64,000 bases of DNA from Vairimorpha necatrix (Eukaryota), in NCBI GenBank assembly GCA_036630325.1, contig CP142726.1, forward strand, positions 124,001 to 188,000, written 5' to 3'. Positions 4,189 to 51,857 of the stretch are shown one piece after another (position 1 is the first letter of the stretch; each line of letters begins with the position of its first letter). The notes beneath the pieces were generated by a model that was not told where the DNA came from, ran no database searches, and worked only from the letters and a program-made list of their open reading frames with translations. Position numbers and translations under genes: made by a program.

Positions 4189-4739
4189 GTGTTTTTTTCA
4201 CAAAAAAAAAATATTTATATTTTAAGTGAAACACTATGTTTCAAAGATTACCCATACATTATAGAAAATGTAAACTGTTCGTCTTGATTTAACTAATCAA
4301 TGCTACTTTATATAAAAGTGAAACGTTTTAAAGTTCATCATAACTAGTATGATATTTTTTTGTAATTTAAAATTTTTTATTTCTAATAAATCATAAATAG
4401 ATAGATCCTGTCCTGATTATGGAACTTATTTTTTCCTTTTTATAATGTACAATTCAGAAGAGTTTAATATCAAAGTACTATGTGTCATATATTGAAACAT
4501 AGGCTTAAATAAATAAATAATAAAACAAAATATTATTGCCAAGTACTAAAAGTTTTTTAAAGAATAAAAATGTAGTCAATGCATACTTTCATCTTTGTAA
4601 TTTGTTTTTAAAAATTTTTTTTAGTTAAAATTTATTGACAGAAAATAAAAAACATTATATTAAATACTTTTTAGAATTTTTGCGTAGATAAAAAACAATG
4701 GAAGTAATTTCTAATTTATAACAAAAAAATTGAGAAAAT

Positions 4740-4811
4740 AGGGCCCAGCAGGGATTGAACCTGCGACCTACCGCTTTGCAGGCGACTGTTCTACCACTGA
4801 ACTATGGACCC
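4740..4811 (-). tRNA. tRNA-Cys(GCA)
   Basis: Reverse complement GGGTCCATAGTTCAGTGGTAGAACAGTCGCCTGCAAAGCGGTAGGTCGCAGGTTCAATCCCTGCTGGGCCCT folds as a cloverleaf with loop CT-GCA-AA. Confidence 0.95.
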
Positions 4812-9410: not shown

Positions 9411-9437
9411 ATAAATTTTTTTTCTTTACCCCTCATT

Positions 9438-12400: not shown

Positions 12401-13742
12401 CGAAAAACAGAGAAATGCATTTAATACAATAACAGATAGTATAGATGAAAAAGGCAATTTATTCTTTTTAGATGGACCAGCTGGATCAGGAAAGACATAT
12501 CTATACAATGTCCTGATTGAATATCTAAATAAGAATAAAAAATCTTCAATACAGATGGCCACTACAGGAATTGCTGCAGATCTATTAAAAGATGGAAGAA
12601 CAATGCATAGTTGTATGAAACTTCCTGTTCCTTTGACAGAGACCAGCGTATCTAGACTAAAGCAAAATACTCCAGAAGCAGAGAGAATAATAAAGGCCTC
12701 TTTATTGCTAATAGATGAAGTTTCGATGATGTCAAAACATGCATTGAACGCAATAGATGAGGTGCTTAAAAGACTCTGTGACAATGATGATATCTTTGGA
12801 GGGAAAACTCTATTGTTGGGTGGTGACTTTAGACAGACATCAACCATTGTAATGAAGGGTACTCCAAATGATATCATCGAGAACTCATTAATTAGTTCAA
12901 GACTTTGGGTACATGTCTGTGTACTAAAGCTTGAAACGAACATGAGATCATATAATCAATTGGAGTTTAATAAGTGGTTGTTAGATATAGGCGAGGGGCG
13001 TACTAGAGATAGTAAAGGATGTGTGGAGATACCCAAAGAATATCTTGAAGAAGGGGACATAGTCGATAGCATTTTTGGAACAATCAAAATTGAAGCAGGT
13101 GATGATTCTTTGTTTGATAAGATTATCTTAACGAGCAAAAATGAACATGCAAATGAATTGAATGCCAAAGTGTTAAACCTACTTAATGGATCTTCGAGGG
13201 TATATGTGAGTTCTGATGCTATAGAATCAGAGGATATCGAAGAACAACTGAGATTTCCTCTTGAGTTCTTGAACATGCAACAGCCATCAGGACTTCCTCC
13301 ACATAAGTTAGTATTGAAGATAGGGGCAATAGTGATGTTGTTACGCAATATTGATCCTAAGAATGGATTATTAAATGGGACCAGATTGAAGATAAAAGGT
13401 CTTAAAGATAATTACATCTTAGGTGAAATAATAACAGGAAGGGGAAGGGGCACCCTTGCTGTTATACCAAAGATAGACATGATGCCAAGTGACACTCTTC
13501 TTCCGTTTGTACTTAAAAGAAGACAGTTTCCTGTGGTATTGTCATATGCGACGACAATACATAAAGCACAGGGACAGTCTTTTGACAAAGTGGGAGTGTA
13601 TTTGCCTGAGGATGTATTTTCTCATGGTCAATTATACGTAGCTTTGTCAAGAGTGAAGAAGAGTGAAAACTTGAGAGTCAAGTTGGGGACAAGAGGAAGC
13701 AATACTAAAAATGTAGTTCTACGTGAACTAATTGGCCCATAA
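9438..13742 (+). CDS. Helitron Rep/Helicase (HUH endonuclease plus Pif1-type SF1 helicase)
   Basis: PDLFITMTCNP, EFQKRGLPHAH, YIFKYIYKG; DGPAGSGKT, IDEVSM, GGDFRQ, HKAQGQS, HGQLYVALSRV; uninterrupted 1434 aa. Confidence 0.97.
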   Translation: MFMKNQANNDLNKQPKATVTISQEICSNTENNNVIFYEANTSVYNQKNKKTNAGETKKRNSIFSFSSDNKTPSKPINNKKELDDLKDNRIIEALTERLDLACRITSRNHAEHYCGDLKEECAFCGALHFAGEASSNGLYKSCCHFGKVKLQRTRDFPDDIKNLYIGKNKDAKNFRDNIRSYNAALSFASLGAQIETVSNGPYVFKIHGQVYHNTYNVNNMDSNAPKKYAQLYVVDSDMANVQRMMNPSNRNCDIYIMSKLDGFIRSANPYSNAYKNMSEVIKEQKEMGKEVKDISMVFNKNLERDQRRYNAPSTSEIAMIFTDPNGEPPFERDIKVYSKGLSSDNLHLDILSPHLDPMTYTLFYPHGEAGWNANLRIESYHGESQKISLLQYKVAQISIRKDKFNPLLYGGKLFQQWIVDSYLQVEANNLNFIKLNQKKLRVDLYKGLVDYVNNGIESNAKPVILPSSFQGSPRNMRERYHDAMSIVRNFGKPDLFITMTCNPNWKEIKENLFEGQTAVDRPDLVAKVFNLKLKSMMGEILSGRVFGEVVAHVYSIEFQKRGLPHAHILIMLKDKIRDEERIDKFVSAEIPSPMENEVLHTCVTKHMIHGPCGLNNLTSPCMENGLCTKEYPKEHNTETRINKDGYPEYRRSRGAEYNVRGNIVTNANVVPYNAYLLEKYNCHINVEVCTSIKSVKYIFKYIYKGFDCAEMRITDNNEIDHFVNSRYVSAPEATWRLMEYKMHGRSHKIHRLPVHLPQEQLITFEEGREEEAVRLSDLRQTPLLAYFKLNEVDEGAHRFSYSEIPYHYTYKRGEWIRRKNKYSKIITRLYSVSPIEKERFSLRVLLINVKGAKSYEDLRTVNGVVYSSFAEAVEERGLLQDDKEWERALDEAVSTESPSIIRALFGYICAFNKPKNTKELFEKYLGDMSEDLDQNSRDEILSRLKDIVNAHGWSLNALGLDEPINYIKNERAVSGIEHDLDQMISSLNEKQRNAFNTITDSIDEKGNLFFLDGPAGSGKTYLYNVLIEYLNKNKKSSIQMATTGIAADLLKDGRTMHSCMKLPVPLTETSVSRLKQNTPEAERIIKASLLLIDEVSMMSKHALNAIDEVLKRLCDNDDIFGGKTLLLGGDFRQTSTIVMKGTPNDIIENSLISSRLWVHVCVLKLETNMRSYNQLEFNKWLLDIGEGRTRDSKGCVEIPKEYLEEGDIVDSIFGTIKIEAGDDSLFDKIILTSKNEHANELNAKVLNLLNGSSRVYVSSDAIESEDIEEQLRFPLEFLNMQQPSGLPPHKLVLKIGAIVMLLRNIDPKNGLLNGTRLKIKGLKDNYILGEIITGRGRGTLAVIPKIDMMPSDTLLPFVLKRRQFPVVLSYATTIHKAQGQSFDKVGVYLPEDVFSHGQLYVALSRVKKSENLRVKLGTRGSNTKNVVLRELIGP

Positions 13743-22857: not shown

Positions 22858-25800
22858 TGTAGGAATATATGTCAATGTCAAATATATAATCAAGTTGATA
22901 TATTTGACATCTGATCTTTTAAATAATTTTATAAAAATAAACCCATGTTTTGTTCCAACAATTTGGCGACAAGCGACAAAAATATTCTTCTCATCTTCAG
23001 AAATGAAGAGAAAGACGACCCACAACAGTTCATAGAGGACTTGATGGAAGTGGGCAGGTTGAATGAGTACAGCGAGGGTAAGCTGTTACTTACATTCAAG
23101 ATGTCTCTTAGGGAAGAAGCAAAAGATTGAATAATGGCCCAACCAGTAGAGCTAGACTTGGGTGAACTAATAGATAGATTCAGGGAGAGATTTGTCAGTA
23201 ATATGATTCTGAAGATTAGTTTGGAAAAGCTTGCAGCATTGAAGTATACAGGTGGATCTATTCTGAACTATCTCGATAGAATGGGTGCCATAGCGAGGAA
23301 AGGAAATGTACCAGAACAAGTCCTGGTAGCGTTTACATTGAATGGTCTGCCGAATAATCTAGCTAACATCGTGCTTATTAACAACAAAGAGGGCCTTGCG
23401 TGGAAATACATCTATGATTCATTAAAGAATATTAAGGATACGAGAGAGACCGAGCGAAACCAGATAGCATCCTCATACGGTCAAGAAGTTAAAGTCGAAG
23501 CAATAAGAAACAAAGTTAATAGTAAAAAATCAAGCTATTCAAAAATTAGATGTTTGATCTGTAGCGAGCAAGGACATGTGGTCTCTCAATGTCGTTTTAA
23601 CAGTTTAAGGAAAAGCTCTAAGGTGAAAAAACAAGTTAGAGAGGTTAGTATACCACAAGGGAATGATGAGATAGATGTGGAAGAAGAAGACTTGAATAAA
23701 TTTATTTTTAATTATAGGTTATTAAATAGCAGAAGTAATCGATCCACTGTTAAGTTGGCTACACTTGAGAACAGTAAACGACCGTTTAAGGTATTATTAG
23801 ATACAGGTGCAGAAGTTAATTTGATTAGGCCGGAACACCTTGAAGACAAAACAAGATTGACTAGAGATAATCTTCAATTACAGGCGGCCAACGGGTCACA
23901 GATAAGAATCATAGGGAAAACGATGCTGAAAATAAAAATAGAAGGATACATATTTGAAGACGAATTTATTGTAACACGGGACATCACCATGCCGTGCATA
24001 GTAGGATGGACATTATTGGACAAATATGAAGTTGACCTAAGATTTGGAAATGGAAAGGTCAACATGGAGTCGGGACAAATCCTTAAAGGAAATGCAATTG
24101 GATATCATAGGATTAACACGGGAGATAGTGAGCCAGTCATGGCTCAGCTATATAAATTAGGCGGAACGAAAGAAAAGGAGGCATCTAAAATAATAAAAGA
24201 ATACCTTGAGCTGGGGGTGATACGGCCAAGTGAGAGTGCTTGGCGAAGTCCAGTGATTGTAGTACCAAAAAAAAGATGGAGGATATAGATTGTGTATAGA
24301 TTACAGGCGGCTTAATGATATTACGATTAAGGATGCATACCCCATGCCTAGAGTGGATGAGTTTATTGATGCACTAGAGGGTGCAAGTTATTTTACTAAG
24401 ATGGATGCAGAATCGGGATATCACCAGATCAATATGCCTCCAAAGGATATTGAGAAGACTGCCTTTGCATGCAGAGAAGGACTTTTTGAATTTGTAAAGA
24501 TGCCTTTCGGCCTAGTAAACGGGCCAGCCACATTTCAGAGAGCAATGAATAACATACTGAGAGAGTTTTTATACAAATTTGTGGTTGTTTATTTGGATGA
24601 TATCTTGGTCTATAGTAGAACGTTCGAGGAACATCAAGCGCATGTTAGGCTGGTTATGGAGAAGTTGGTAAATGCTGGAGTAAAGCTGAATGAGAAAAAG
24701 TGTGAATTTAATAAGAAAGAACTTAAAATCTTGGGGCATGTGATCTCGAAGGAAGGAGTTAGGATCGACACAGAAAGGATAAAGAGTATTGAGGAATTGC
24801 CGATTCCAAAAAACAAAAAGAAATTGCAATCATTGTTGGGGCTATATAATTACATTTCGAAATTTATAAAAGACAGTCATAAGATAGTAAGCCCATTGTA
24901 TAGGATCATTAAGTTGAAAAAGGAAGAGGAAATCAAATTTTGGAAAAGGGCATCAGAAAACAGGCAGTTTATCGAAGCCATAGAAGCGTTAAAGGCAGCT
25001 GTGAATAAAGCGACATTATTGACTATCCCAAATACGAGAGATAAATTCATTTTGACGACGGACGCGTCAAATGAAGGAAGTGGAGCCATGCTATCCCAGG
25101 TAATAGAAGGAGAGGAAAAAATGGTAGCATACTTTAGTTCTTTGCACACGAAAGCGGAAAAAAATTATTCTACAACAGAACAGGAGCTGTTGGCGGTAGT
25201 CAAAGCATTTCAACACTTCAGAGAATATCTACTGTTGGGAAAGTTTACCTTAAGAACGGACCATCAGGCTTTAAAGTATCTTTTTAAGTCAAGGAATATT
25301 AAGGCAAGGTTAGCGAGATGGTCGCTCCTCCTTCAGGAATATGATTTTGAAATTGAGTATATTGCGGGACCCTCAAACTATGTAGACCATTTAAGTAGAG
25401 ACTTTAAAATAGAGATGAAGAAAATTGAAACAGTAAGCACTGCTGAAGAAAGGAAAGTTATAAACAGGGAAAGGGGACTTGAACTGGTCAGATTTTACCA
25501 CGATATGTTGGGCCATGGCTCAAAGAAAAATATGAAATATAACATGAGACGTAAATATGAATGGAAGGAAATTAACAAAGATATAGATCAGTTTGTAGAG
25601 AACTGCGAAATCTGCCAACAGGAAAGAGAACAAAAACAATTCAAAGATATTGTACCATTGGTGGCAAACAACATTGGTGAGATTTGGGAAATTGACATAG
25701 TAGGACCATTCAAGGAGAGTGAGGACGGGTACAGGTATCTACTGACAATGGTAGATCATTTCTCAAAAACGGGGGAGATTATCCCGATCCATACAAAAGA

Positions 25801-26567
25801 CATGAACACAATAGTGCATTTAGTGGACAGATACATCATAAAGAAATATGGAATTCCGAAGGCAATTTTAACAGATAATGGACGAGAGTTTAAAAATCGA
25901 ATCTGTGAGGATTATGCAAAAGAGAAACAGTTTACTTGGAAATACGGATCACCATACAGTCCGACCACCACAGGATTAATAGAGAGATTTAACAGAACAA
26001 TAGGAATTAAACTGAGGAAGCTCACGGAATTTGGCAAGTTCGATTGGGCCAAATGTGCAAAAAAAGTAAATAAAGCCTATATGCAGTCCTATCACCGTGC
26101 CATAGGCTGTGCGCCCATAGAATTGCACCAAGGATTAGTTCTTAATCATATGGATCTGCAGGAGGGAATTAATATTAGAATGGATAGAACAGACTTTAGG
26201 ACTAGAGCGAAGGAGAATTTAGAACGATACAGAGGGGAGTATGCAACACATGAGAAAACGGGTGCGCCCCAATTGGAAGAAATAAAGGTAGGTGACAGGG
26301 TATGGTACAGACTAATTTTGCCCCAAGGAGGGAAACTGGAACCAAAATGGCAAGATAAAGGAACGGTCTTGGATAAAAGGTTTAAATCGTATAGTGTTTT
26401 ACTTGACGACGGAAGAACGATTACAGCGAATCGAAATCATGTAAAACTTTTAAAGGGGAAGTAGTGTAGGAATATATGTCAATGTCAAATATATAATCAA
26501 GTTGATATATTTGACATCTGATCTTTTAAATAATTTTATAAAAATAAACCCATGTTTTGTTCCAACA
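22858..26567 (+). mobile_element. Ty3/gypsy LTR retrotransposon, full length, 3710 bp
   Basis: Identical 103-bp LTRs 22858-22960 and 26465-26567 (TG..CA); TSD AAAGT; PBS-like TGGCGAC after the 5' LTR; PPT AAAGGGGAAGTAG. Confidence 0.97.
22945..26464 (+). pseudogene. gag-pol polyprotein (CCHC, PR, RT, RNase H, IN) with one stop and one frameshift
   Basis: CLICSEQGHVVSQC, LLDTGA, YLDD, TDAS, HHCC plus DDE integrase; TGA at 23128-23130 (AKD*IMAQ); A8 instead of A7 near 24266-24273 breaks VPKKDGGYRLC. Confidence 0.92.
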
Positions 26568-27533
26568 AAAGTAATTAGTTTTTTCTCTTTTTATCGTATA
26601 AAATTGTTATACAAATTTAAAAAAAGATACACAGGCACATAGTACAGGGCATCATACGAAAGACGATCTGAAAAAAGAATAAGAAAAATATCTAAAAATT
26701 CACATACGCGCCGAAACAAGCTTATTATTCTTGTCTACAAGAAAAAAAACATGGCCATCAATATTTGAAGTTATTATGATCACCAATACTAGTATACTAT
26801 GGTAGAAAATATAAAGATTAAAGAAAAATCATATAAAATTTCTGTTTTTAATGTATAAAACAATAAACCCGTGTTATTAAACGAGATGATCTTGCGATCA
26901 AACATTTCAGAAAGTATATTTAGAATTTAAAATCCCATTTATTGTGAAAAAAGACTTTAGAATGTATTCTTTTGATCAAAGAAAAATGGAAGAATGGCCA
27001 GATAGAGCTCGAATCACTAAATGTAAAATTAGATGTAAAGAAGAGATGCATGCATGAGGCTGATAGATTTTTAGTTACGAAAATACTATATTCAATATCT
27101 AAACCCCGTATTATGCTAACTTTCATAAGTATACAAAATAATGTGTGCTTATAATATGAAGAATATTGTTACAAACCATTGTTTTATTATATTAAAAAAT
27201 ATCAAACATACAGATCCATAGAAGATACATTAAAAAGTATTTGCGCTATTATATTATTCTTTGTTTATTTTTTTGATGTAAAATAAGAATAATTATGATA
27301 AATTAAAAAATTTTTATCAAGTTAGGGATTCGAATGCGATTTGTTTCTAACTATCTTCTATTATATTGAAAACATTACTATTTAATTAAGAATTAAGTTA
27401 GGAATAATAAAAATCGAATATATATGTCTTTTTTTTCGGTGCGATCAGAAGTTGTGGTATCTTCGTTGAGTTAATAAGATTTAGACGATTATTTTATATT
27501 TATTACAAAATAAAAATTTTAAGACCCATTAAA

Positions 27534-28541
27534 ATGAGTTTAAAATTTCTCCCATTCCAACTGCTAAAAGAAATTATTACTAAAATGATAACTGGAAAAT
27601 ACATAAACGTTGGTTCTACGAAACTTCTATACATATATCATTATGATAGCTGCTTTTTTGTTGATTGGCTTTTATATTATAATAAACAACGATTTAATAC
27701 TGTTTTTGTTATCAAAAAACGAATTATAGATGACAAAGATGAAGATATAAAGTTTTTTGATTTTTCCGAAAGAATATTTTTTTGCATTTATAATATAAAT
27801 ATTAGAAATAACGCTGGTTTAGAACATAAATACATTTTAGATATGTATTATTTGGATATTCATCAGACATATAAAAATATTAACAGATATAACTCGAAAC
27901 AAACAAAAAAAATTTATAGGTATATAATTTATTCAAGACCTTTTTATATCATCTGGTCTACAAATTTTTCTTTAGAAGATAGTTTGCAAGTTTATGGCTC
28001 TTTATGCGAAATATTCAAACAGATACAAAAAGAAAATTTGTGTTGTGAATCCGAAGTTCCTTTATGCAGGTTTCCTATTCATTATAAGTGGTGCGAAAAT
28101 AGGGTACGAAAATTTAATAAATATACAAATACGAATAAGAGACATCTCTATTTATATAAACTGATTTACAATATGCAGAACGTACTATTCTCAAAAAGTA
28201 CAAATAATTATTACAACAATAAGAATATGAACCCGTATGTAATTAATTTTAAAACAATTAATGATAGAGATCTTTTTTTAAATTTCTCGATTTATGATAA
28301 TTGTCGAAATTATCATCATTATGCTTTTAATATGTATTATTGTTTTAATCAGCATATTAACATTCGGTTTAATCATCAGCTTAATCATCATTTAGACCAA
28401 CAGTTAAATCATCCTTTAAACCACCCTGTTAACCGCCGAATTTATAATTCTACAAATCATCAGTTAAATCATTATTTAGCCACAATTTTGATGATCCTTC
28501 TACTATCAATATTTATCCTTGTAATATTCCCGTTATTTTGA
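27534..28541 (+). CDS. Divergent member of the Cys-rich membrane-anchored family, with NH(Q/P/H)L repeats
   Basis: CFF, STNFS, ENLCCES, YKWCE, KNMNP align with the 31379 and 46835 proteins; C-terminal TM; CCC before ATG. Confidence 0.8.
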   Translation: MSLKFLPFQLLKEIITKMITGKYINVGSTKLLYIYHYDSCFFVDWLLYYNKQRFNTVFVIKKRIIDDKDEDIKFFDFSERIFFCIYNINIRNNAGLEHKYILDMYYLDIHQTYKNINRYNSKQTKKIYRYIIYSRPFYIIWSTNFSLEDSLQVYGSLCEIFKQIQKENLCCESEVPLCRFPIHYKWCENRVRKFNKYTNTNKRHLYLYKLIYNMQNVLFSKSTNNYYNNKNMNPYVINFKTINDRDLFLNFSIYDNCRNYHHYAFNMYYCFNQHINIRFNHQLNHHLDQQLNHPLNHPVNRRIYNSTNHQLNHYLATILMILLLSIFILVIFPLF

Positions 28542-29785
28542 TTTTTGTAATTGTTTTTACACTTTAAGAGCACAAAAATATCGATATTTGTAATATAGAC
28601 TCTAACTGCGTTTTTGTAAACAAATCCTGTGTAGTCACACAAAAATTTTGTATTTCAAATTTTTATTATAGACTCGAAATACATTTCAGTTCAATATTGA
28701 TAAACGTAAAATTAAAAGTATATTAACAGTATTTTTTTTAATATTTATTATATTCATATATATTTTTTTCATGAATGAAAAGTTAAGGAAATTGATATTG
28801 CAATTTTTTTTTGAATATGTAATTATTGTTACTACGAAATAATCAGATTCAAACTAACTGGTATCTGAAAATCAACATACTTTTTACCCTTATTTTTATA
28901 GGTTTGAATTAAGTAAAGCCGAGATTAAATTTTAATCCGTATCTGGAAAGAATAATTAAATATAATTTTTTTTAAATGTTTTGTAAAACACTGAAAGTAA
29001 GTATAGTTCATTTAAAAAGCTTCAAATGTTCTTTAAACCACAATATGTAAAAAAATAGAAAAACTACATTTAGTGTGTCCAAAACCTCTAGTATAATGAT
29101 TTATTAAGATAAAACAACCTCTTAATGCTGTTTTTTTTTTGTTTTTTATATTATAATTTCGCATATCAGACAGTTACTTTAGCATTTCAAAAAAAAACTA
29201 AGAAAAAAGTTAATAAATTATAAGTATTTACTATAGAAAAAAAACGCTAAAATATTTGCCGTAAAGTTTCTGAAAGCAAAAAAGATAGAAAAATAATATA
29301 ATGTACAGATCTTTTTAAGTTTGTGACACAGAAACTGTTGAAAAAACAATAGAATGAAAATGTATAATACTATACCTGAAAAAAAAATTAATATAAGACA
29401 TAAAAATAAAATTTGCTAAAAAAATGCTGTCCTTTGTGCAGGTGTATGAAAATGCCAGATCGAGAATAATATAGCTGTATCCATAAATTAGTTATCATTT
29501 ATAATATTTTTGGACCCGCAAGTTTATTTTATACAAATTTTATAATAGGAGCTATGTCAGAAATACAAGAAATTACCGACTACATGCAAAACACCACACA
29601 TATAATTCAAATAAAAAAGTTTTTTTTTTTGCAAATAAAAAATAGAATAGCCGATTATTACTGTAAATAAAATTATAAAAAATAATCTTTAATAAAACTA
29701 TTTTGAAGTTTGTAATTTAATCACGTTGAAATTAATTTAAAAAAGTTTAACTATTTTCAAACATCCTATGTTAAAGTAGTATGTA

Positions 29786-30566
29786 AAACCCTTGGCGCAT
29801 TGGTAGAAGACAGGGTTTAAATTGAGCATGGCTGTGTCCGAAGCCCATACACAAAATAATTCTAAATTCTATGATGCAGTTGGAACAACTCTGAAATAAA
29901 AATGTTTAGGATAATCATATAGTCGTATCAATGATACTTATGTGTGTACAGCCACAAGGGGATTAGCATCAAGTGTATAAACGCACATCGAGGCCGAAAA
30001 ACAGTGTCTTCTTCGTAAGGACTTATTGATATATATAAGTGTTTGATGAAAATGGCCTAGTTGAAGCCCACGGCTGGTGCACTCCAGGGTAAGATCTTAG
30101 AGCTAACTAAGAGACTAGACGAAGTAGGGCAATATAAGGTCTCGTGGACCCTATCCTACAAGATTCTGTAACACGGTGGCCGAAACTAGTGGGAGCTGGT
30201 GGTCAACGCAGCCCAATAAAAACGCCGGGCTGGTGATGTGGCCGTGTAAGGAGCCGTGTGTACAATCAGATAATTTTAGGGATCTTTGAGTCAGTACGAT
30301 GATGTCTCTCCTCGGGCTATAGATAACCATGCCCGTTAAGTATATTCGCTGTGAGGTTACTCTGGACGCGATTTGAGGTATAAATGGAATGTGTTCTCCT
30401 GGAGCCAAAGTCCAATGGATACGGCGGAGCTTGCTGCGCCGGCAAGTTGTATGGAGGGAGTTTTAGTGAGTAAGAATCTCACAGTACAGTTAGATGAGGA
30501 TCACAGCCAAATCCCTCTGGTCCCTATGTAAGGTTTCTCCCTACCTCTTACTTGCAAGAAAAAAAA
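29786..30566 (+). mobile_element. tRNA-headed SINE-like/structured ncRNA element, copy 1 (head decayed)
   Basis: Colinear over ~775 bp with the reverse complement of 51082..51857; A-box TGGCGCATTGG retained, B-box degenerate; ends in an A-run. Confidence 0.85.
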
Positions 30567-30595
30567 CTTAAAATATATTTACTATTTTATTTGTT

Positions 30596-30929
30596 TCACA
30601 AGAAAATCTACAGCAAGTATAAAACGATAAGTTAAGAAAGTATGATGCCCTTGCAAACGAACTGGGCTTAATATATAATTTTAAAACTGAAATAATTCCT
30701 TACTCATCACTTAGGATGGCTAAGTGACTAAGTTTTACAAATCTTATACCACAAGAGTCCAAATCCTTAAGAAGGTAGAAGCGTACATCCAGATTATCCC
30801 AGCTCCGAAGACGCTAGAAAGCACTCTCTAGACTACCGAAGGAAAGGAGATGAAGCTGGAAGCTATCTACAAGCAGGAGACGCTAACGCGGAACCTTTTG
30901 TTGTTAAATTAGAATATAAACTACACTAA
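30596..30929 (+). pseudogene. 3' fragment of an RLE-type (R2/R4-like) non-LTR retrotransposon
   Basis: SQENLQQV*NDKLRKYDALANELGLIYNFKTEIIPY...VTKFYK...VEAYIQ...KTLES is the K..KY..L restriction-like endonuclease end; AATAAA follows. Confidence 0.8.
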
Positions 30930-30970
30930 GCATGTCGTAATAAAATTATTCCCTTAAATTTTTTAATTCA

Positions 30971-31133
30971 TGAAATCTTGGCCCTTGTCCTGGTCTAGGC
31001 CTATCTTGATTACTCTCTATTTTTCTCATTTCTTTAAAAAGTTTTTTAAAATATTTTTTGATTAGAACTGATTGTTAATTTTTGATAAAAATTTAAATAT
31101 CAAACATTTTAATCATAGCATCAGGCTATGACA
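30971..31133 (-). repeat. ~165-bp dispersed repeat, inverted copy of 37907..38079
   Basis: ATCTTGGCCCTTGTCCTGGTCTAGGCCTATCTTGA...CATCAGGCTATGACA; TG..CA ends. Confidence 0.85.
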
Positions 31134-31378
31134 CTTTAAATGCAAATATAAAAAAGGGACATTAATGGTGCACATTTTTTTTGGGCAAATTCTAAGTTTA
31201 GAATTTTTATCATTTACACAGTCAACAGACTGAAAAAGCAGTGTTTTAGTATCTAAGTCCTCATTGTTTCAGATAAAATATATATCTATGAACTTATATA
31301 CGACTTTGTTATTAAATTATTTTATTATTTGTTTAGTATCATAAAAAAAATCTTTTTTACCCCCAATCACAAAAAAAA

Positions 31379-32563
31379 ATGGTATCAAACTTTCTTTTCT
31401 TTCATATTTTATCAATACTGGCAATTAAATTGAAATCTAGTAAAAGAGATCGTCTATTAATTAACAATCCACTTTTCTCAGAATCAGAAAATACTTGCTT
31501 TTTATTTGATGACTTACTAGACACAGACAAACTACCACAAAAGACTGCTTTTGTTATGGGAGAATCTATTTGGAAAAATATAGTAAGTAATCCAAAGTTC
31601 AACGATATTTTAAAAAAAGATAATATAACGATGGTTTTTGAAAAAAATAAAAAATTGTATGAAGTTTCATATTTTCATATATTGAGGTGGAATTATTTGA
31701 TTAATTTCTATCTAGATATAAGTTCAAAAACAGTTGATGTGACAAAGTTGGGGTTTGATTTTAGTTGTAAAATCTATTACATGACTTTTGATATTTTGAG
31801 ATCATTGAACTTTTGTTATAAAGATAGAATGCTAAATTCGAAAATCCGCGAAGAAGAATTACAAAAGATACTCGATGAAAATTTATGTTTTAAATCTAAC
31901 GGTATGAACAATTGGCCATCTGTCTATTTTAAATGCTGTGAAGGGATTGTGTTGAATATAGATAAATGTATTGAGCAAGATAAGAGATTTTATTATATTG
32001 AAAAGCTTAAAACTAATCAAAAGAATATACTATGTTCTGAGTGTAGCAGTGATTTTTACGACTTTAAAAACATAACCCCGAATGTTTCTGATCTAAATAA
32101 CACTAATGATAATGCGGAAATTTATTGGGACGGCGAAAGCTTAAAAAATTTCTGTAGACCAACTACGTCTTTCAGTACTACGAGAAATATGACTTACAAT
32201 TACATAAATGAAATTTCTAATAATACTGGCTTTGATTATACTAGCCTCCTTAGTACTTTTTCTAACGAGACTCAAATGAATGATAAAGACAATTCTATAA
32301 TTTCTACCACTTCTGATAGGAATGGCACATATTATGATTTATATACCAGTAGTGCAAATAATGCTTATATAATTATTTTATGTATGATTTTCTTGCCGCT
32401 TATCCTTATTGGGTCGTTTTACTGCTTTTATAGATATAGAAAATATAGTATAAAAAAGGCGATCAAAAAATCCAATAGTGTTTTTTATGAACCAGTGCAA
32501 GCAGAGGAAAACATAAACGATGACAAAGATGCATATTTGTATGAAATTGAAAAAATATATTAA
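31379..32563 (+). CDS. Type I membrane protein (signal peptide, Cys-rich ectodomain, N/S/T stalk, TM, short tail)
   Basis: Strong similarity to 46835..48082 (TFDILRSLNFCYK, ENLCFKSNG, CEGIVLNIDKCI, NQKNILCSEC). Confidence 0.9.
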   Translation: MVSNFLFFHILSILAIKLKSSKRDRLLINNPLFSESENTCFLFDDLLDTDKLPQKTAFVMGESIWKNIVSNPKFNDILKKDNITMVFEKNKKLYEVSYFHILRWNYLINFYLDISSKTVDVTKLGFDFSCKIYYMTFDILRSLNFCYKDRMLNSKIREEELQKILDENLCFKSNGMNNWPSVYFKCCEGIVLNIDKCIEQDKRFYYIEKLKTNQKNILCSECSSDFYDFKNITPNVSDLNNTNDNAEIYWDGESLKNFCRPTTSFSTTRNMTYNYINEISNNTGFDYTSLLSTFSNETQMNDKDNSIISTTSDRNGTYYDLYTSSANNAYIIILCMIFLPLILIGSFYCFYRYRKYSIKKAIKKSNSVFYEPVQAEENINDDKDAYLYEIEKIY

Positions 32564-33724: not shown

Positions 33725-34741
33725 GGCTAAATTAACCTTTAGTACACAATTTTCGATATAGGGATTTTTTTGTTTTTTTTGCCCCTTTTTTTCAAAAATG
33801 GAAGAAAGAATTTGGACAAGAGATGAACTGAAGCGATGTATAATGAATTATCAATAAAAAGACAACCTACTGTTTGTGATAATTGTACATCTAGGATTCG
33901 AGTACAACGTAAAGGGAAAGGCTTATTTATATTTACTTGGAAGGATTGCAAAAAGTCATTTTCTATATGGAAAGATTCTTTCTTTATAAGTTCTCACCTT
34001 AATCATATAACAATATTACAAATACTTAATCTGTGGATTCTTGGTTATCCACGTAAATATATTTGTCAAATGTTAGGTTGTACCAAAAAGTCTGTGTCCT
34101 TTATATTAACAAAATTAAAAGAAATAACCATTTATGACAAATATTTATCTTCTTTTAGTAAGATAGGCGGGGAAGATGTTGTTGTAGAAATTGATGAAAC
34201 TAAAATAGGAAAGAATAAACATAACAGAGGAAAATTAGTGAAGGGATTTTGGTGTTTCGGTATTATAGAACGTACCATCAAACGTAGAATTTTAGTGTTA
34301 TATATTAAAAAAAGAGATAAAGAAACTCTTACGGGTCATTTATTAAAATTTGTAAGTACAAAAAGTACTATACATAGTGATATGTGGAAGGCTTATCATT
34401 CTTTAAGGACCATATTTAAAAAACACCATATGGTTAACCACTCGTTGCACTTTCGAGATCCCAATACTGGTGTTCATACCAATACCATCGAAGGTAATTG
34501 GCGTCCCCTCAAAAATGCTATTTTTAATAGAAATAGGTCATCATGCAGTGCCAAGCTTTATTTATTTATTTAGGTACATGATTCAAAGAAATTCTTCTAG
34601 TTCTGTGTTTGAAGCATTAATAAATTTATTGTTTTAATTTTTATTTTTGTTTCTTCCTCCACATTTTCTTTCTTCCATTTTTGAAAAAAAGGGGCAAAAA
34701 AACCCTATATCGAAAATTGTGTGCTAAAGGTTACTTTAGCC
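33725..34741 (+). mobile_element. Merlin (IS1595/IS1016-like) DNA transposon
   Basis: ~80-bp TIRs starting GGCTAAA.TAACCTTTAG; exact 8-bp TSD TTATTTTG at 33717-33724 and 34742-34749. Confidence 0.95.
33798..34637 (+). pseudogene. Merlin DDE transposase, frameshifted near both ends (main ORF 33836..34573)
   Basis: VEIDETK, IHSDMWKAY, VNHS, HTNTIEGNW motifs; removing one ATTT near 34565 restores LYLFRYMIQRN..LLF*; CCC-associated ATG at 33798 is out of frame. Confidence 0.88.
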
Positions 34742-37069: not shown

Positions 37070-37904
37070 GGAGCTGGGATACTTACAGCCCCCGCATTTG
37101 AGGCGCTACGATTTTTTTTTTCAAACCCCCAAAATGAAGTGTAAAAAAAGGAAGAGCCAAGAAGAGACGAAAATTACTAGGCACTTATGATATTAAAAAT
37201 ACTAAATAAATATATGCTTTTATACAAAAATTAATTTTAGATTTAGTTATAATAAAATTTATAGTATTGTGTCCTTTTTCACCTCTTATTTTTTCAATTT
37301 TTTTTAATTGTTGGTTTATTATGAAAGTAGATTTTCTTCAAAAATCTACTTTATTAATAAACCAACAATTAAAATTGTAAATATTATTTATATAAGAAAA
37401 TTTAAATAAATGTTCAACGATCTATACAGATTGTTAAATCAAAAAATTTAATTTAAATATGTTAAGTTATTTAAAATTATATAGTTTTATGGTTATATTC
37501 TTTTTTTAAAATTAAATTTCGTATAAGAATATATATTCATTTGGTATTTTTATTGTTTGAAGATGCAAGTAATTTGAGTACTAATGATTGCTTATCCTTT
37601 ATTTTGCACTTCGTTTTTGGGGTTCAAAATAATAAAGTGAACACCCTTAGAGGGGTGCGTTTTTGTCCCCAATTCTAAAAAATCAGAAGGGCAAAAAATG
37701 CTTAGTGGTTTATATTATTGTAAAAACTTGTATTAAAATATAATTGTGTACATAAATATATATTTATTTAGTATTTTTAATATCATAAGTGCCTAGTAAT
37801 TTTCGTCTCTTCTTTGCTCCTCCTTTTTTTAACACTTCAATTTTGGGGTTCGGAAAAAAAAATCGTAGCGCCTCAAATGCGGGGGCTGTAAGTTCTCTTT
37901 AGCC
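37070..37904. mobile_element. MITE/foldback element with ~145-bp TIRs
   Basis: ACTTACAGCCCCCGCATTTGAGGCGCTACGA... inverted at both ends; GG termini; 9-bp TSD ATTGTCATA at 37061-37069 and 37905-37913; internal palindrome ~37303-37374. Confidence 0.92.
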
Positions 37905-37906
37905 AT

Positions 37907-38079
37907 TGTCATAGCCTGATGCCATGTTAAGAATGTTTGATCGTTTTCTTATTATAAAAAATCAACAATTAATTTTTATCAAAAAATATTTAGATAAAAA
38001 TTTTATAAAAAGGGCAAGAAAAAATGAGAAGAGGAGAAATAAATCAAGATAGGCCTAGACAAGGACAAGGGCCAAGATA
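37907..38079 (+). repeat. ~170-bp dispersed repeat, inverted copy of 30971..31133
   Basis: TGTCATAGCCTGATG...TCAAGATAGGCCTAGACAAGGACAAGGGCCAAGAT. Confidence 0.85.
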
Positions 38080-39929
38080 TCTAGAAATAAACATCTTTGA
38101 TAATAAATATATTATAAGTATCGTTGAAAGATACTCTAAAGACGGGTCTTATCCCCGTGGGATGACAATCAATAAATTTTATTTAAACTTTACGACGTTT
38201 ATTAACGAAAAAATATTATTTTACCTTATCTATAAAATTAAACCTCTAAAAAATCTTTCTAGTTCATTTTTTCTTTTACTCTTAGTTTTACCTATAATCA
38301 ATATTTGTGGAAGGAAGAAGAGTAAAATTTTGTCATATATTATATATTCATTATGAACGAATACAGCGACTTACATGTTAAATACCCGTTAACAACTACT
38401 AATAAAATAAAGATTGGAGCATAAAATGTTTTTACAAATTGTCGACTTTGAGATTCCACATAAAATTTTATGGAGGAATCAACACATATATTAATTTAGA
38501 CAATTTTTTGGAGAAACGTCGAATTTATAATTTTTTCTTTTTTCAATTTTCACTAATCCATTTCTACAAAAAAAAAAAAACTTCGAAAGCTTTATTAATC
38601 AGTAAAGTATTAAAAAAAATCTTTGTTTTAAATTTTAAATCAAATCATTCTTGGTTTTATATTTGTCACACTTCATAATCATATTTCTTTTTTTGTTGTA
38701 GTAGCATAAAGAACATGTATAGTTTTTATTTTTTTATAAGTTATGAAGTTATGTGGATGATTTGTTTTTATCAAAATCAATAGTAAATTCATTTTTAAAT
38801 TAGTAATTTTGCCATTTTGATTTTATAATTTTTATGTTTATAATAAAAAAAAATATCTATGTATGCTTTTGTAAAAAAATACACAAAAATCTTAAAAGTG
38901 TCTATAGATTGTAATACAGAGGGATCTTATAGGATTTTGATAAAAAAAACATTTTTTCAAAGTCAATGGCTTGAACAAAAAAAAACAAATAACTTTATTA
39001 CATTGTGATCGGATTATATATACCTATAGCGAATCATACTGATTGCATGTATAGGTTAAAATAAAAATTTTCACGTATTACTACGTCGAAAATATAGAAT
39101 TTCCCCACAAATAGGGTTGGCTGTAGGTTTCATATGCTCCATATAAGTTAAAATAAACTGTAACCCATTAAAAAGTATATCATTTCCTATGCATAAAAAT
39201 TATTTTATCCTAAATTGTTATATAAAGTAATTAAAGCTTCAGATTTTTTAGCCTGTGGATAAACATGACTCACAACTAGACATTACCAAAATAACTAATA
39301 TAGTGTGTACATATTATATATTAAAGTTCAAATTGAGCAAAATGATTTGTTAACAAATTAGTATAATTTTGAGTCTGTAATTATGTTGTTTCATTTTTAA
39401 ATAACAACCTTTAGAAAAATATAATTATATCTGCTTTATATCCCCTTAGATGCATAATAAGTATAACTTATAACCTCAAGTCTAGTTCGCAATTATAAAA
39501 CACGAAATTCTTTTATGTTAGATAATTCAATGGAATAGCTTTATCCAGTAAAAATACAGTAATTGCCGAAAGATGAAAACAGTCTCAAGTTCTTATGTGT
39601 AGATCTCGTAATTGTTTTTACATGAATAAACAAATAATAAGATTATAATCAAAAAGTAAAAATTTTCTAAATGGCCATTCATTGATATCACCTATATAAA
39701 AAATCTATTGATGTAATATTTGGCAAATCAATTCTTTGAATATTCAGATTGTGTTTGTATTATCTTATTTTGTTTTGATAACACATTAGATCAAATTTGT
39801 AGTTTATTCAGCTATTCGAATAGTATATATAGTTATATTTATTTTTCTACTTTTAGTAATTCTAACTTACATTTATATATATATTTCAGACATATAGTCT
39901 ATCTATAATACTTATATGAGTATAGTGGC

Positions 39930-42976: not shown

Positions 42977-43004
42977 ATAAATAGGAAAATTTTCTTGCCC
43001 CCTA
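42977..43004 (+). promoter_or_regulatory. TATA-like element, AAATTT and CCC motif upstream of Argonaute
   Basis: TATAAATAGGAAAATTTTCTTGCCCCCTAATG; the CCC/GGG motif also precedes ATGs at 7644, 9438, 14361, 17897, 27534, 31379, 35651, 42287, 48082 and 56198. Confidence 0.75.
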
Positions 43005-45425
43005 ATGGAGTTGAGCAATTACCCAGCGGAAAGGCCCAAAACCGAAACTAGTACTTCGAGGACTCTAGACCTGGAAACCAACATGTTCAAGTACACAGGG
43101 ACTTTGTCTAGCATACATCATTACGATGTACGATTTACTCCTGAAATTAACAGGAAGTTTGTATTTGAGACATTTATGCGCGCTTATAGTGAGCACAAAG
43201 ACGAGTTCCCAGAAATAGCTTTTGATGGAGTAAACACTTTAGTGTCTACTTCCCAGTTTCAGAATAAGACCCTGAAATTGGGGAAAGAGAAGGTTGTTAC
43301 TATTGATATTATGTATAAGAATACATACGATATGGATGATTTGAGAAAAGGAAGTGATGTGAGTCAACACATACAGTGTTTAGAAGTAGTCACCAGATAC
43401 TGGCAGAAATTGAATAGCATAAGTGACAGGCACAGAGTCTTTGGTGAACAGAGTGATGGAACATTGAGTTCTGTAATAGAATTGAGAATAGGACTGGCTC
43501 ATAATATAAAATTGACAGCTAGTGGATTTTATTTGAATGTTGATACTGCTTTCTCTGGATTTTATAAGAGCATGCCTCTTCTTGAAGTAATTCAGAATTT
43601 GATATCTGAGACGAGAAGACAAGGACAAAGATTTGACAGGCGAGACAATACTCAGAATAAAAGAAGAGACGAGTCAGTAGATTTAGCCAGAGAAAACTTA
43701 GGAAGGGATTTCTGGTATAATTTTGAGAAATTTATTAAGAATATAAAAGTCAAGACTAATCACAGAGGACCTAAACAGAAAGAACTGAGTTTCAAGGCAT
43801 CAGGCATTTTACAGGAACCCGCTTCCTCATGTAAATTTGAAATGGACGGGAAGTCGTATACTGTCGCTGAATATTTTGCCCAGACTTATGGACCCTTGAA
43901 ATTTCCAAATTTACCAGTAGTTTTGATCAAGAAAAGAGGCATGGAGTTATATTTCCCCATAGAAGTATTGGATGTTCATGGAGGCCAGAGATATATTAAG
44001 AAACTAGACGAACAACAAACTTCTACTCTTATAAAATACGCAGCGAAGCCACCAATTGACAGATTCAGGATTATCCAAGATAAATTAAGAGATTTACCAA
44101 TCTTGAATAATAATAAGTCAGATTCTTTTGGAGTGGTCTTCGAGTCAAATTTCACTAAATGTACAGGGAAATTATTACAGGCCCCTAAGATTCTCTTCGG
44201 GAAAAATGCCACTATGGATGTGAGAAGAGGAGGATGGAATTTAATGGGCGTGTCTGCCTACAATCCTGCCAAAGTGCACTCTTGTAATGTGTTCCTCTTT
44301 AGAGAGCCAAGAAATGTCGATATAAGAAGATGTATTCACTCTCTAGTAGATTTAGCCAGGAAATATGGCGTCATTTTTGAAAAAGATCCCAATGTGATTT
44401 TTGTTAAGACAGTCGACGATATTATCAGACAAGCGAATGCAGAAATATCTCTGGTAGTATTACCAGACAAGAGTACTTCGAGATATGAAGAAGTCAAGAG
44501 AAGGACAGAGACTGAGACCAGAATGGTCACTCAGTGTCTATTAGAGAAGAATTTTGGGAATTTACAGAAACCTCCTTTTGTTGGGAATTTGTTGTTGAAA
44601 ATTAACTCTAAGTTAGGTGGAGAAAATTCTGTGATTTCTAAGAGTTCTGTGATTTTGTCCAAGCCGACTTTAGTCCTCGGGATTGATGTAAATCATCCTG
44701 GTATCGGTGACTTAAATAGTCCAAGTATAGTGGCCATAGTAGGAGGAATGAATAAGAATTTGACTTCTTTCAAGACTATTATCAAGCAGCAAGACAGGAG
44801 ACATGAAATAGTAGAGAAATTTGACGAGGACATTGTCACTATGTTAAAGTCTTTCTATATGAAGTCTAAGGTCAAGCCTGAGCAGATAGTTGTCTTCAGA
44901 GATGGTGTGGGCGATACGATGTTCCAAGAAGTTTTCCATAAGGAAATTATAGCCATCAAGGAAGCTTGCAATAGGATCGAGTCAGGTTACACCCCTAAAA
45001 TTACTTTCATTGTGGCTCAGAAGAGACACTCAGTCAGATTTAATAATCCTGCCGCGAATAATTTCAAGGCTGGTGAAAATGGTAATGTCCCCCCTGGTAC
45101 AGTTGTGGAAGATATTGGGCATCCTACCTTGTTCGATTTCTATTTAGTCTCTCATCATGCCTTACAAGGCACAGCCAGACCTGTTAGGTATTTAGTCTTA
45201 TTGAATGAGTCAGGTTTCAAGTCTGAAGAGCTTTATGATTTCGTGTACGGTATCTGTCATAATTACGCCAGAGCTACTAAGGCAGTGTCAGTTGTGCCAC
45301 CAATTTATTATGCTCATTTGGCGGCATTCAGAGGAAAAGCGTATCTTGAGAAAGATCATAAGTCGGATAAGATCAGTATGAAGCAACATAATCCATCACT
45401 TGATGAAAAATTATTTTACGTATGA
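43005..45425 (+). CDS. AGO1: Eukaryotic Argonaute (N-PAZ-MID-PIWI)
   Basis: TVAEYF and FPIE (PAZ); YEEVK, TQC, NLLLKINSKLGG (MID); GIDVNH, HEIVE, FRDGV, QKRH, QGTARP, YYAHLAA (PIWI, DEDH). Confidence 0.97.
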   Translation: MELSNYPAERPKTETSTSRTLDLETNMFKYTGTLSSIHHYDVRFTPEINRKFVFETFMRAYSEHKDEFPEIAFDGVNTLVSTSQFQNKTLKLGKEKVVTIDIMYKNTYDMDDLRKGSDVSQHIQCLEVVTRYWQKLNSISDRHRVFGEQSDGTLSSVIELRIGLAHNIKLTASGFYLNVDTAFSGFYKSMPLLEVIQNLISETRRQGQRFDRRDNTQNKRRDESVDLARENLGRDFWYNFEKFIKNIKVKTNHRGPKQKELSFKASGILQEPASSCKFEMDGKSYTVAEYFAQTYGPLKFPNLPVVLIKKRGMELYFPIEVLDVHGGQRYIKKLDEQQTSTLIKYAAKPPIDRFRIIQDKLRDLPILNNNKSDSFGVVFESNFTKCTGKLLQAPKILFGKNATMDVRRGGWNLMGVSAYNPAKVHSCNVFLFREPRNVDIRRCIHSLVDLARKYGVIFEKDPNVIFVKTVDDIIRQANAEISLVVLPDKSTSRYEEVKRRTETETRMVTQCLLEKNFGNLQKPPFVGNLLLKINSKLGGENSVISKSSVILSKPTLVLGIDVNHPGIGDLNSPSIVAIVGGMNKNLTSFKTIIKQQDRRHEIVEKFDEDIVTMLKSFYMKSKVKPEQIVVFRDGVGDTMFQEVFHKEIIAIKEACNRIESGYTPKITFIVAQKRHSVRFNNPAANNFKAGENGNVPPGTVVEDIGHPTLFDFYLVSHHALQGTARPVRYLVLLNESGFKSEELYDFVYGICHNYARATKAVSVVPPIYYAHLAAFRGKAYLEKDHKSDKISMKQHNPSLDEKLFYV

Positions 45426-46834: not shown

Positions 46835-48082
46835 TTACAAGTCGTTAGTATCTTTTTTGTTTGCTTCAGCTTTAGCTAAATCATAAACTACATTTTTAAA
46901 GCGTCTTTTGTGGTTGCATTTCTTATATTTATATAACATGTAATACAAACCACCTAAAATAATGATCGCAACAACACAACATATAGATATTATCCCCGAA
47001 TGATTTGTATCATTAGTAAATATATCATTTAGATCTAAACCATGAACATTGTCGATAGTGTCATTAGTGGCAAAATCCGATATATTAATATGAGCATCGC
47101 GGATAGCTGCCTCACTATTATTAGTAGAATTTGATTTAGGAAAGGAAATGTCGGAAGTAAAATTATGAGAAGTCTTAGTAGTTGCATTTCTGAAATCGGC
47201 AGAATCGTGTGTATAAATTGTATCGACGGTAGAAGAATTTCCAGAATTGTCACTTGTAAAATTAATATTAGATAACGAAATATTATCTATACAATAATCA
47301 TTCAAACTAACTTCTGTCCAATTTTTATCAGTATTATTAATAGATTCCTTTAAACTTGCAACATCAGGATTCATATTCGCAAAATAATAATAATTATCAC
47401 CACATTCAGAACACAGTATCTCCTTTTGGTTATATCTAAGTTCAAGAAGGTACTGACTTTTATATTTCTCTTTTATACATTTATCTAAATTCAATACAAT
47501 ACCTTCACACCATTTATAATAAACATTTGGTAAATTATTTTTCCCATTAGATTCAAAACATAAATTTTCTTTAAATATCTCTCGAATTTCTTTCTGCTGA
47601 AAATTCGCAACAATTATTCTCTCTTTATAACAAAAATTTAATGATCTTATGATATCAAATGTTTTGAAATATATATTATAAAAAAAACTATAATCAAAGT
47701 CGGGGACCTCCTTATAACTAGCACTATTTTCTGCTTTATAAATAGTACTTTCTTCAAGCCTGGGATAATTATCTTCTAATATGCTTAAAAAAATCTTTTT
47801 TAGTACCTTACGATATTTTTTGAAAAAGACTTCCAAATTATCTTTTTTTGAAATATCGCGAAACTCCGGAGCCAAAGTGATGGCTTTCCAAATTACTTCT
47901 CCAACTGCCAGAATAGTACTTTTTGATAAGCTAGCTTTGTTTGAATGGCTCTCAAATAAAAAACAGGCATTATCGAATTTTGGGAATAAAATATTCTGAA
48001 ATTCAAGCGAAGAATTTCCACTGTTTATATCTTTAAAGATGATGGCTACTAAGAGTTTAAGATAAAGAAATTTAGAAAACAT
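46835..48082 (-). CDS. Type I membrane protein, paralog of 31379..32563
   Basis: Signal peptide, same Cys pattern, longer sequon-rich stalk, TM IISICCVVAIIILGGLYYML, basic tail. Confidence 0.9.
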   Translation of the reverse strand: MFSKFLYLKLLVAIIFKDINSGNSSLEFQNILFPKFDNACFLFESHSNKASLSKSTILAVGEVIWKAITLAPEFRDISKKDNLEVFFKKYRKVLKKIFLSILEDNYPRLEESTIYKAENSASYKEVPDFDYSFFYNIYFKTFDIIRSLNFCYKERIIVANFQQKEIREIFKENLCFESNGKNNLPNVYYKWCEGIVLNLDKCIKEKYKSQYLLELRYNQKEILCSECGDNYYYFANMNPDVASLKESINNTDKNWTEVSLNDYCIDNISLSNINFTSDNSGNSSTVDTIYTHDSADFRNATTKTSHNFTSDISFPKSNSTNNSEAAIRDAHINISDFATNDTIDNVHGLDLNDIFTNDTNHSGIISICCVVAIIILGGLYYMLYKYKKCNHKRRFKNVVYDLAKAEANKKDTNDL

Positions 48083-51081: not shown

Positions 51082-51857
51082 CTTTGCAAAAAAGAAGTAG
51101 GGAGAAACATTACAAAGGTCGAAGGGATTTGAGTATAATACTTGTCCAACTGTTACTGTGAGATCATTACTCGCTGTAACTTTCTAAACATAACTTGCCA
51201 ATACAACAAGCTTCGCCATACCCATGAACTTAGCTCTAAAATATTTTTTCATTTATATCTCGGGTCGCGTTCGGAGTGACCTCACAGCGGATATACTTAA
51301 CGGGCATGATTATCTATAACCCGAAGAGAGACATCATCGTACTGACTCAAAGGTCCCTACAATCATCCGTATTGCACACACGGCTCCTTACACGACCACA
51401 TCACCAGCCCGGCGTTTTTTATTAAGCTGCGTTGACCACCAGTCTCCCACTAATTTTGGCAACCGTGTTACAGAATTTTGTAGGATAGGGTCCACGAGAC
51501 CTTCTATTGCCCTACTTCGTCTAGTCTCTTAGTTAGCTCTAGGATCCCACTCTAGAGTGCACCAGCCATGGGCTCCAACTAGGCCGTACCCATTAGATAT
51601 TTTTATGTATCATCAAGTCCCCAAAGGCGATACTGCTTTTTGGCTTTGAGGTGTGTTTCTATACTAGATGCTAATCCCCTCGTGGCTGGACACACACAAG
51701 TTTCATTGAATCAACTTAATGATTATCGTGGACATTTTCATCATCTGAGTTGTTCCAACTGCATCATAGAAAGTAGAAACAATTTTGGTGCCCCTGGGAA
51801 TCGAACCCAGCCATTGCTCAATGGAAGCATTGCATTCTACCACTGTGCTAAGGGCAC
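51082..51857 (-). mobile_element. tRNA-headed SINE-like/structured ncRNA element, copy 2 (intact head)
   Basis: Cloverleaf-like head with A and B boxes, ~700-bp GC-rich body, ends in T6; interrupts the dead gypsy between RT and RNase H. Confidence 0.88.
51786..51857 (-). ncRNA. tRNA-like head with non-canonical anticodon loop
   Basis: GTGCCCTTAGCACAGTGGTAGAATGCAATGCTTCCATTGAGCAATGGCTGGGTTCGATTCCCAGGGGCACCA; loop TCCATTG lacks U33 and purine 37. Confidence 0.8.

Follow-up and report, generated by a model that had tools for sequence, protein, structure and literature searches.

Why does a tRNA-headed retroposon of Vairimorpha necatrix stand just ahead of, and on the same strand as, the endonuclease-coding end of a LINE? 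The arrangement might represent one mobile element, the product of one reverse transcription event, or two neighbouring insertions. In the searchable literature, microsporidian non-LTR elements have been counted and barely described: the searchable text of Parisot et al. 2014 (PMC4202319) gives numbers of LINE families, the word SINE being absent from it, and that of PMC11585130 and PMC13702014 gives RepeatMasker categories only. We analysed the 64,000-nt stretch of DNA that contains the locus, here called the window, together with relatives of both parts.

An AT-rich window crowded with transposons

The window is AT-rich (GC 22-38% across 2-kb bins) and contains long ORFs, no apparent introns and many transposons. 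The features surrounding the locus are as follows.

9411-13742, + strand: Helitron ORF, open over 1,443 aa, with Helitron_like_N, PIF1 helicase and Pif1 2B domains; intact-looking
22858-26568, + strand: Ty3/gypsy element, flanked by two 100% identical 104-nt direct repeats
30972-31155, no strand assigned: repeat unrelated to the SINE or the LINE, adjoining the LINE end (from inverted pairs and alignment)
33827-34573: DDE transposase
42981-45425: Argonaute gene
57290-60075, - strand: second gypsy element, broken

The Ty3/gypsy element at 22858-26568 has its gag-pol in two ORFs, of 385 and 733 aa, and appears to have inserted recently. The repeat at 30972-31155 begins about 20 bp past the LINE end and has an inverted copy 7 kb away, at 37907-38091; this third repeat shows the spot to be a pile-up of transposable elements. 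The copy at 37907-38091 itself abuts MITE-like inverted arms of about 160 nt (37081-37239 and 37734-37893), which lie 500-650 nt apart. The window also holds a gene family of unknown function with three members, at 27411-28541 (+), 31337-32563 (+) and 46835-48094 (-), two of which are 34% identical over 418 aligned positions. Each SINE copy lies upstream of, and on the same strand as, one member of this gene family, at distances of 0.8 kb and 3 kb.

An old tRNA-headed SINE copy

The upstream part of the locus is one of two copies of a SINE-like element, which lie 21 kb apart in opposite orientation.

29789-30566, + strand: SINE-like retroposon, copy 1, about 0.78 kb, GC 44%, about 5 bases short at the 5' end
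29789-29860, + strand: tRNA-like head of copy 1, decayed, with an A-box-like motif kept and a B box that is degenerate by eye
51080-51858, - strand: SINE-like retroposon, copy 2, with an intact-looking tRNA-like head at 51786-51858 and without a LINE tail

Alignment of the two copies gave 627 identical, 143 mismatched and 18 gapped columns (81%), and blastn gave 79.7% identity over 798 columns. The head of copy 2 was called as tRNA-Met(cat) by ARAGORN and scored 29.5 bits against the Rfam tRNA model, for which the gathering score is 29. The head of copy 1 aligns to it at 72% and received no tRNA call from either ARAGORN or Rfam. The body of the element, with a GC content of 44% against 22% in the 5' flank, is non-coding: its longest ORF (103 aa) had no homologue in a word-index protein search. 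No exact repeat of at least 7 bases, as expected of a target-site duplication, was found around either copy, both of which are old and lie in AT-rich DNA.

Contigs of two public sequencing runs, X1 and X2, were compared with window positions 28500-32500, and 456 (X1) and 210 (X2) contig pieces fell on this 4-kb stretch, with the depth concentrated on both repeats. A 669-nt X1 contig is 99% identical to the unique flank at 28910-29577, so X1 comes from the same or a close organism. We guessed X1 to be DNA; if it were RNA, the poly(A) ends and the depth rising towards the 3' end would be less telling about genomic copies. Two further runs, X3 and X4, gave short AT-rich matches only. At 30566 at least 40 X1 contigs exit into an A-rich or poly(A) consensus, and at least seven X2 contigs exit there into mixed flanks. 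Copy 1 itself terminates in A8 (30559-30566), and past 30566 its identity to copy 2 drops to 48%, the likeness stopping at the A-run. The collapse in identity and the X1 exits bear out the initial annotation, which had ended copy 1 at about 30566. The summed X1 depth, which is not a copy number, climbs along the SINE from 6,243 (29840-29973) to 143,064 (30510-30643), and at a likeness of at least 80% no X1 or X2 contig lay on 29706-29839. X1 contigs also show many internal skips within the SINE (29887-30406), and the left breakpoints recur at 29887-29891 (3 variants) and at 30195 (4 variants), which suggests internally deleted or modular SINE subfamilies.

The features that define a tRNA-derived SINE are present: a tRNA-related head with predicted internal Pol III boxes (called in copy 2, decayed in copy 1), a non-coding body, dispersed and multiple copies, and an A-rich 3' end. 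The SINE family is thus tRNA-headed, non-coding, poly(A)-ended and about 0.78 kb long, and copy 1 is an old, almost full-length member.

Several further candidates for this element were rejected. It had been described as a structured RNA, a view that folding does not sustain, since copy 2 folds at a z score of -0.65 and 6 of 20 shuffled sequences fold at least as well. At loose thresholds Rfam returned a weak R2 3'-UTR match at 30444-30548 (+), which scored 20.4 bits (E 0.13) where the gathering score is 38; this match is missing from copy 2 at E<=5 and was taken as probably due to chance. The two copies are not parts of an inverted segmental duplication, which could have put the events in order, because the neighbouring paralogous genes are just 34% identical in protein while the SINE DNA is 80% identical, and the arms are otherwise unalignable. 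Collections of metagenome, prokaryote-genome and viral contigs contained no exact match to a conserved 26-base pattern of the SINE.

A 5'-truncated LINE tail 29 bp downstream

Behind the A-run, the locus continues on the same strand with a short spacer and the end of a LINE.

30567-30595, no strand assigned: spacer, 29 bp, AT-rich (GC 10%), with TTTT at 30585-30588
30596-30929, + strand: C-terminal coding end of an RLE-type LINE, 5'-truncated and decayed, about 111 codons in three frames
30930-30950, + strand: short LINE 3' UTR with AATAAA at 30939-30944, exact 3' end uncertain, no poly(A) run

When the translation of 30596-30724, with one stop read as X, was searched with phmmer among 1.84 billion representatives, 51 proteins matched at E<=1e-3. 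The named matches come from Vairimorpha apis, Hamiltosporidium tvaerminnensis, H. magnivora, the wasp Polistes dominula and the moth Scirpophaga incertulas, and two proteins, P0006 (962 aa) and P0003 (943 aa), are near full-length. With P0006 as the query, tblastn matched 30560-30703 (frame 2) to residues 841-888, with true likeness judged by eye to begin at 30596, and 30715-30822 (frame 1) to residues 893-928; the third frame, 30771-30929, holds the '..YRR..' end of the family. The window fragment accordingly spans P0006 residues about 853-962. Of the 3,362 six-frame pieces of the window, a family profile of the C-terminal domain matched two, 30623-30724 (E 3.4e-12) and 30724-30828 (E 0.0036). 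These results agree with the earlier reading of a C-terminal, endonuclease-coding LINE end lying about 30 bp behind the SINE on the same strand, the gap being exactly 29 bp, and with its ending in TAA (30927-30929) and AATAAA. The absence of such a tail behind copy 2 likewise stands, the best family-profile score downstream of that copy being E 18.

The fragment starts right after the catalytic '..PD..IIEVGIT' core and covers the distal part of the nuclease domain only; owing to the truncation at 30596, the window copy lacks the catalytic PD and E positions, which would lie farther upstream. With in-frame stops at 30620 and twice within 30703-30725, and at least two frame changes, the fragment is, judged from its sequence, dead. 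Pfam returned nothing on four short window ORFs, and word-index protein searches were empty for a 52-aa ORF and a 43-aa read-through fragment. The 3' UTR at 30930-30950 has a loose likeness to the 3' ends of related tails in another locus (L002, described below). In other LINE copies, a different sequence precedes 30596; compared by eye, the spacer agrees with it at 8 of 30 positions. Taking the 5' flank, the SINE, the spacer and the LINE in turn, the GC content is 22%, 44%, 10% and 37%.

Assignment and distribution of the LINE family

In both near full-length proteins Pfam found RVT_1 alone, with no APE domain and no N-terminal zinc-finger or Myb domain, and the RT region matched L1 ORF2p and R2 chains at ~1e-15. 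The order of domains in the relatives is RT, a CCHC motif (C-x2-C..H-x4-C) and a PD-(D/E)xK nuclease, and the sequence after the CCHC motif reads '..KPDIFVLDK..IIEVGITSQENLQ..EKLRKYD..IIPYV.TWDG..AYIQS..KTLE.IS..YRR..'. The KPD and IIEVGIT motifs were read in P0006 and in the family alignment, that is, in relatives and not in the window fragment. By sequence, a profile of the nuclease domain found no solved chain, R2 included. An AlphaFold model of the C-terminal domain (pLDDT 71, pTM 0.68) gave 10 Foldseek matches at E<=0.001, six of which are R2 proteins (best 9dou_A, E 1.2e-5, TMq 0.55); the other four are chains of one viral PD-(D/E)xK-type endonuclease domain.

We assign the LINE to the RLE type because of the RT, CCHC and KPD nuclease motifs and the R2 structural matches; by RT homology and the modelled nuclease fold, the family is predicted to be of the R2 group. 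R2 and R4 elements in the strict sense are site-specific for 28S rDNA and carry N-terminal zinc-finger and Myb domains. Like R2, R4/Dong, NeSL and Hero, the full-length relatives possess RT, CCHC and a '..KPD..x14..E-V..' nuclease. The family differs from these elements in the lack of a sequence-level match to solved R2, in having no zinc-finger or Myb domain, and in a copy outside rRNA genes, as no rRNA match was found within the window at Rfam gathering scores. The former label 'R2/R4-like' is therefore right as to the RLE type and the top structural matches, and does not extend to strict R2/R4, since an rDNA site and zinc-finger/Myb domains are lacking.

P0006 had no relative in metagenome contigs, and the domain alignment had none in viral contigs. 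Two prokaryote MAG records, titled Clostridium sp. and Chlamydiales bacterium, gave 52 and 4 LINE matches, which lie on short AT-rich contigs (loci L001-L027, GC 29-39%); the LINE in these bins looks like eukaryotic contamination. The family is annotated in assemblies of both microsporidia (P0002 in Vairimorpha apis, and Hamiltosporidium) and insects (P0003 in Polistes dominula, P0004 in Scirpophaga incertulas), a distribution that could reflect either horizontal transfer or parasite DNA in the insect assemblies. In several microsporidian gene models, a LINE tail is fused to host coding sequence.

One of the MAG loci, L002, contains three truncated tails on the same strand, which begin at P0006 residues 822, 860 and 857. 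They fall, by eye, into two subfamilies, and each lies about 2 to 40 bases behind a shared 3'-UTR-like motif. Two or three tail stretches also occur in 5 of the 51 protein matches; in the other MAG record, no abutting same-strand tails were seen among the contigs inspected. Copies of this LINE family tend to be found immediately behind the 3' ends of older retroposons.

SINE and LINE as separate families

If the tRNA-headed RNA were the normal 5' UTR and promoter of the LINE, the locus would be an internally deleted LINE, and the same-strand order of head, body and tail, seen at this one locus only, would follow. The initial annotation had proposed such a Pol III-driven 5' UTR, and the other LINE copies speak against it. 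At least four X1 contigs extend upstream of 30596 into nuclease-coding sequence (the '..IIEIGVT' strand) rather than into the spacer or the SINE. The 3,180-nt contig on which P0006 lies leaves less than 300 nt for both UTRs. The 5' ends of related LINEs, whose inspection had been proposed with that reading, did not show a tRNA-like head: across the 35,731 bases of 20 related LINE loci, among them L008 with about 1.5 kb upstream of the ORF start, there was no tRNA-like or Rfam match, and the SINE is absent from the LINE-bearing loci of both MAG records. In addition, the X1 depth on the LINE tail is 3,644-5,566, so that the 3' part of the SINE is covered about 25 times as deeply as the tail. A 5' UTR origin of the SINE is hardly credible on this evidence.

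A further possibility is that head, body, spacer and LINE tail move together, as a SINE subfamily with a LINE-derived 3' end. Classical tRNA-SINEs do carry a LINE-derived tail, and the X1 depths of the SINE 5' part (6,243) and the LINE tail are similar in magnitude, as they would be for a composite unit, though depth is not copy number. Against this, two different junctions exist, and a copied unit would keep one. The second was found in one X1 contig (depth 29), in which the SINE end at 30566 is joined to the LINE near 30670 with no spacer; in an alignment made by eye, 27 of 35 letters match window positions 30670-30705. The join at about 30670 could be a deletion derivative of an old duplicate. 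Furthermore, the X1 exits described above end the SINE in poly(A), and copy 2 has no LINE tail. Pol III transcripts stop at T4 runs, and such runs occur at 30585, 30679, 30733 and 30896, between the SINE and LINE ends; they would terminate a Pol III transcript before the end of the LINE, which counts against the composite unit as well as the 5' UTR. Taken together, we regard a mobile composite as very improbable.

The 3' ends of the two elements are also unrelated. Local alignments of the SINE with the LINE tail scored 17-21, whereas shuffled controls had means of 20-21 and maxima of 28-29, so the SINE 3' end is not common to the LINE tail in the window, for either SINE copy. The suggestion that the junction identifies the mobilising partner of the SINE is not supported, as the two tails share no sequence above shuffled controls. 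The two parts have distinct identities and limits, and each family exists without the other; what stands at the locus is two different dead retroposons side by side.

Template switching or two insertions

Two dead retroposons may still have arrived in a single event. The reverse transcriptase of R2 is capable of end-to-end template jumping. Here, the LINE reverse transcriptase would have left a broken or abandoned LINE template at 30596, switched to a SINE RNA at its 3' end and read that RNA through to the 5' end, after which SINE and LINE tail would have been integrated as one piece. U6/L1, WEIRD/MGL and Mg-SINE/MGL chimeras were proposed to arise by such LINE template switching (Gogvadze et al. 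2007, PMC2104539), and the features listed in the accessible text of that paper are (i) a full-length 5' part, (ii) a truncated-LINE 3' part, (iii) varied truncation, (iv) a direct join in the same orientation and (v) direct repeats. Four of these five listed features fit the locus (PMC2104539): the SINE at the 5' side is nearly complete (short by about 5 bases), the LINE behind it is 5'-truncated, and the truncation point varies, being 30596 here and about 30670 in the X1 contig with the direct join. The fourth is half seen, with the same orientation and no direct join, and for the fifth no repeat of at least 6 bases was found in this AT-rich DNA. The TTTT at 30585-30588 in the spacer could represent the 3' trailer of a Pol III read-through transcript of the SINE, and the head-to-tail tail arrays of the LINE family would also be expected from serial template jumps.

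Other observations weigh against a single event. The parts are not directly joined here: 29 bp of background-like DNA lie between them, 7 bp of which are beyond the T run, and T4 runs are common in DNA of 75% A+T. No direct repeat of at least 7 bases flanks the composite, a point that is weak in AT-rich DNA. Moreover, the single SINE-LINE join stands against at least 47 contigs that leave the SINE 3' end elsewhere (40 from X1, 7 from X2). The template-switch chimera of the initial annotation thus retains the same strand, the near-full-length SINE, the truncated LINE and the second junction in its favour, and has the spacer and the lack of a direct repeat against it. We consider it a tentative alternative, less probable than two insertions.

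The reading that we favour, with a confidence that is evenly balanced, is two separate insertions, perhaps biased towards retroposon 3' ends. The SINE and the LINE are separate multi-copy families and the window is rich in transposons; the 29-bp spacer, with its background-like composition, fits two nearby insertions and not a direct RNA-to-RNA join. In this scenario, the SINE and the LINE would each have been inserted by target-primed reverse transcription, in one of the few intergenic spots of a compact genome that tolerate transposons. Earlier or later than the SINE, an abortively copied LINE cDNA would have been integrated 29 bp behind the A tail of the SINE, and a habit of the LINE to integrate just behind earlier retroposon 3' ends may have helped. 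We infer the order and the independence of these two events from the arrangement of the parts.

Four observations count against separate insertions. First, no target-site duplication marks either part. No direct repeat of at least 7 bases flanks the SINE, the LINE or the two together; the longest exact flank repeats are 6-mers, which are at chance level in AT-rich DNA, and no exact repeat of at least 6 bases is shared between the 30 bp before 29786 and 30915-30990. Second, coincidence alone would rarely produce the arrangement: with two SINE ends in 64 kb, the chance that a LINE tail starts on the same strand and no more than 30 bp away from one of them is, by rough estimate, about 0.05-0.1% per tail. 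Third, the one X1 contig with the direct join at about 30670 provides a second junction. Fourth, no empty-site allele appeared among the 15 contig joints listed (of 37), none of which skipped the SINE, the LINE tail or both.

The last idea of the initial annotation, that the LINE targets the end of the SINE, draws on the same strand and on this second junction at another LINE position, and is at odds with the 29-bp spacer and the missing direct repeat. In a broader form, the LINE would repeatedly join truncated cDNA to the 3' end of the SINE RNA, by template jumps or by integration behind tails, which we consider rather unlikely. The second junction and the head-to-tail tail arrays of the relatives may point to a non-random link between the SINE and the LINE. 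The likeliest account of the locus as it stands is a commonplace pile-up of two dead retroposons.

Discussion

The two parts of the locus, and their adjacency, each have counterparts among known elements. In Magnaporthe, Mg-SINE pairs with the LINE MGL. The SINE described here resembles tRNA-derived SINEs with a partner LINE, of which Mg-SINE is an example, in that a tRNA-like head containing A and B boxes is followed by a non-coding body and an A-rich end, and in its many dispersed, mostly old copies. Usual SINEs are shorter than 0.78 kb, and the present element differs from other tRNA SINEs in this length and in sharing no 3' sequence with the LINE beside it, such sharing being the usual proof of partnership.

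Zepp of Chlorella and HeT-A/TART of Drosophila form head-to-tail arrays of 5'-truncated LINEs. The LINE relatives are similar in their same-strand arrays of truncated tails, each behind the previous 3' end. The locus itself differs from these arrays in that the upstream neighbour is a SINE, and no telomere context was seen.

L1 and the Tad-type MGL carry an APE nuclease, whereas the LINE at the locus belongs to a family with a restriction-like nuclease. The locus further departs from U6/L1 and WEIRD/MGL in the 29-bp separation of its parts, the lack of flanking direct repeats and the two junctions now known. In the accessible description of U6/L1, WEIRD/MGL and Mg-SINE/MGL (PMC2104539), the likeness lies in a near-full-length copy of a small non-coding RNA followed by a 5'-truncated LINE in the same orientation, with truncation points that vary.

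Microsporidia are models of genome reduction, and the LINE family is common to Vairimorpha, Hamiltosporidium and some insects. A SINE-LINE junction, once verified, would offer a first means of learning which reverse transcriptase moves the SINE, and would show how the LINE builds its tail arrays. The value of the locus is as a pointer to a genome-wide census of such junctions. If the LINE does repeatedly join its truncated cDNA to the SINE, the joins at 30596 and about 30670 would be two of many, and they would give the first direct evidence on a SINE-handling LINE in microsporidia.
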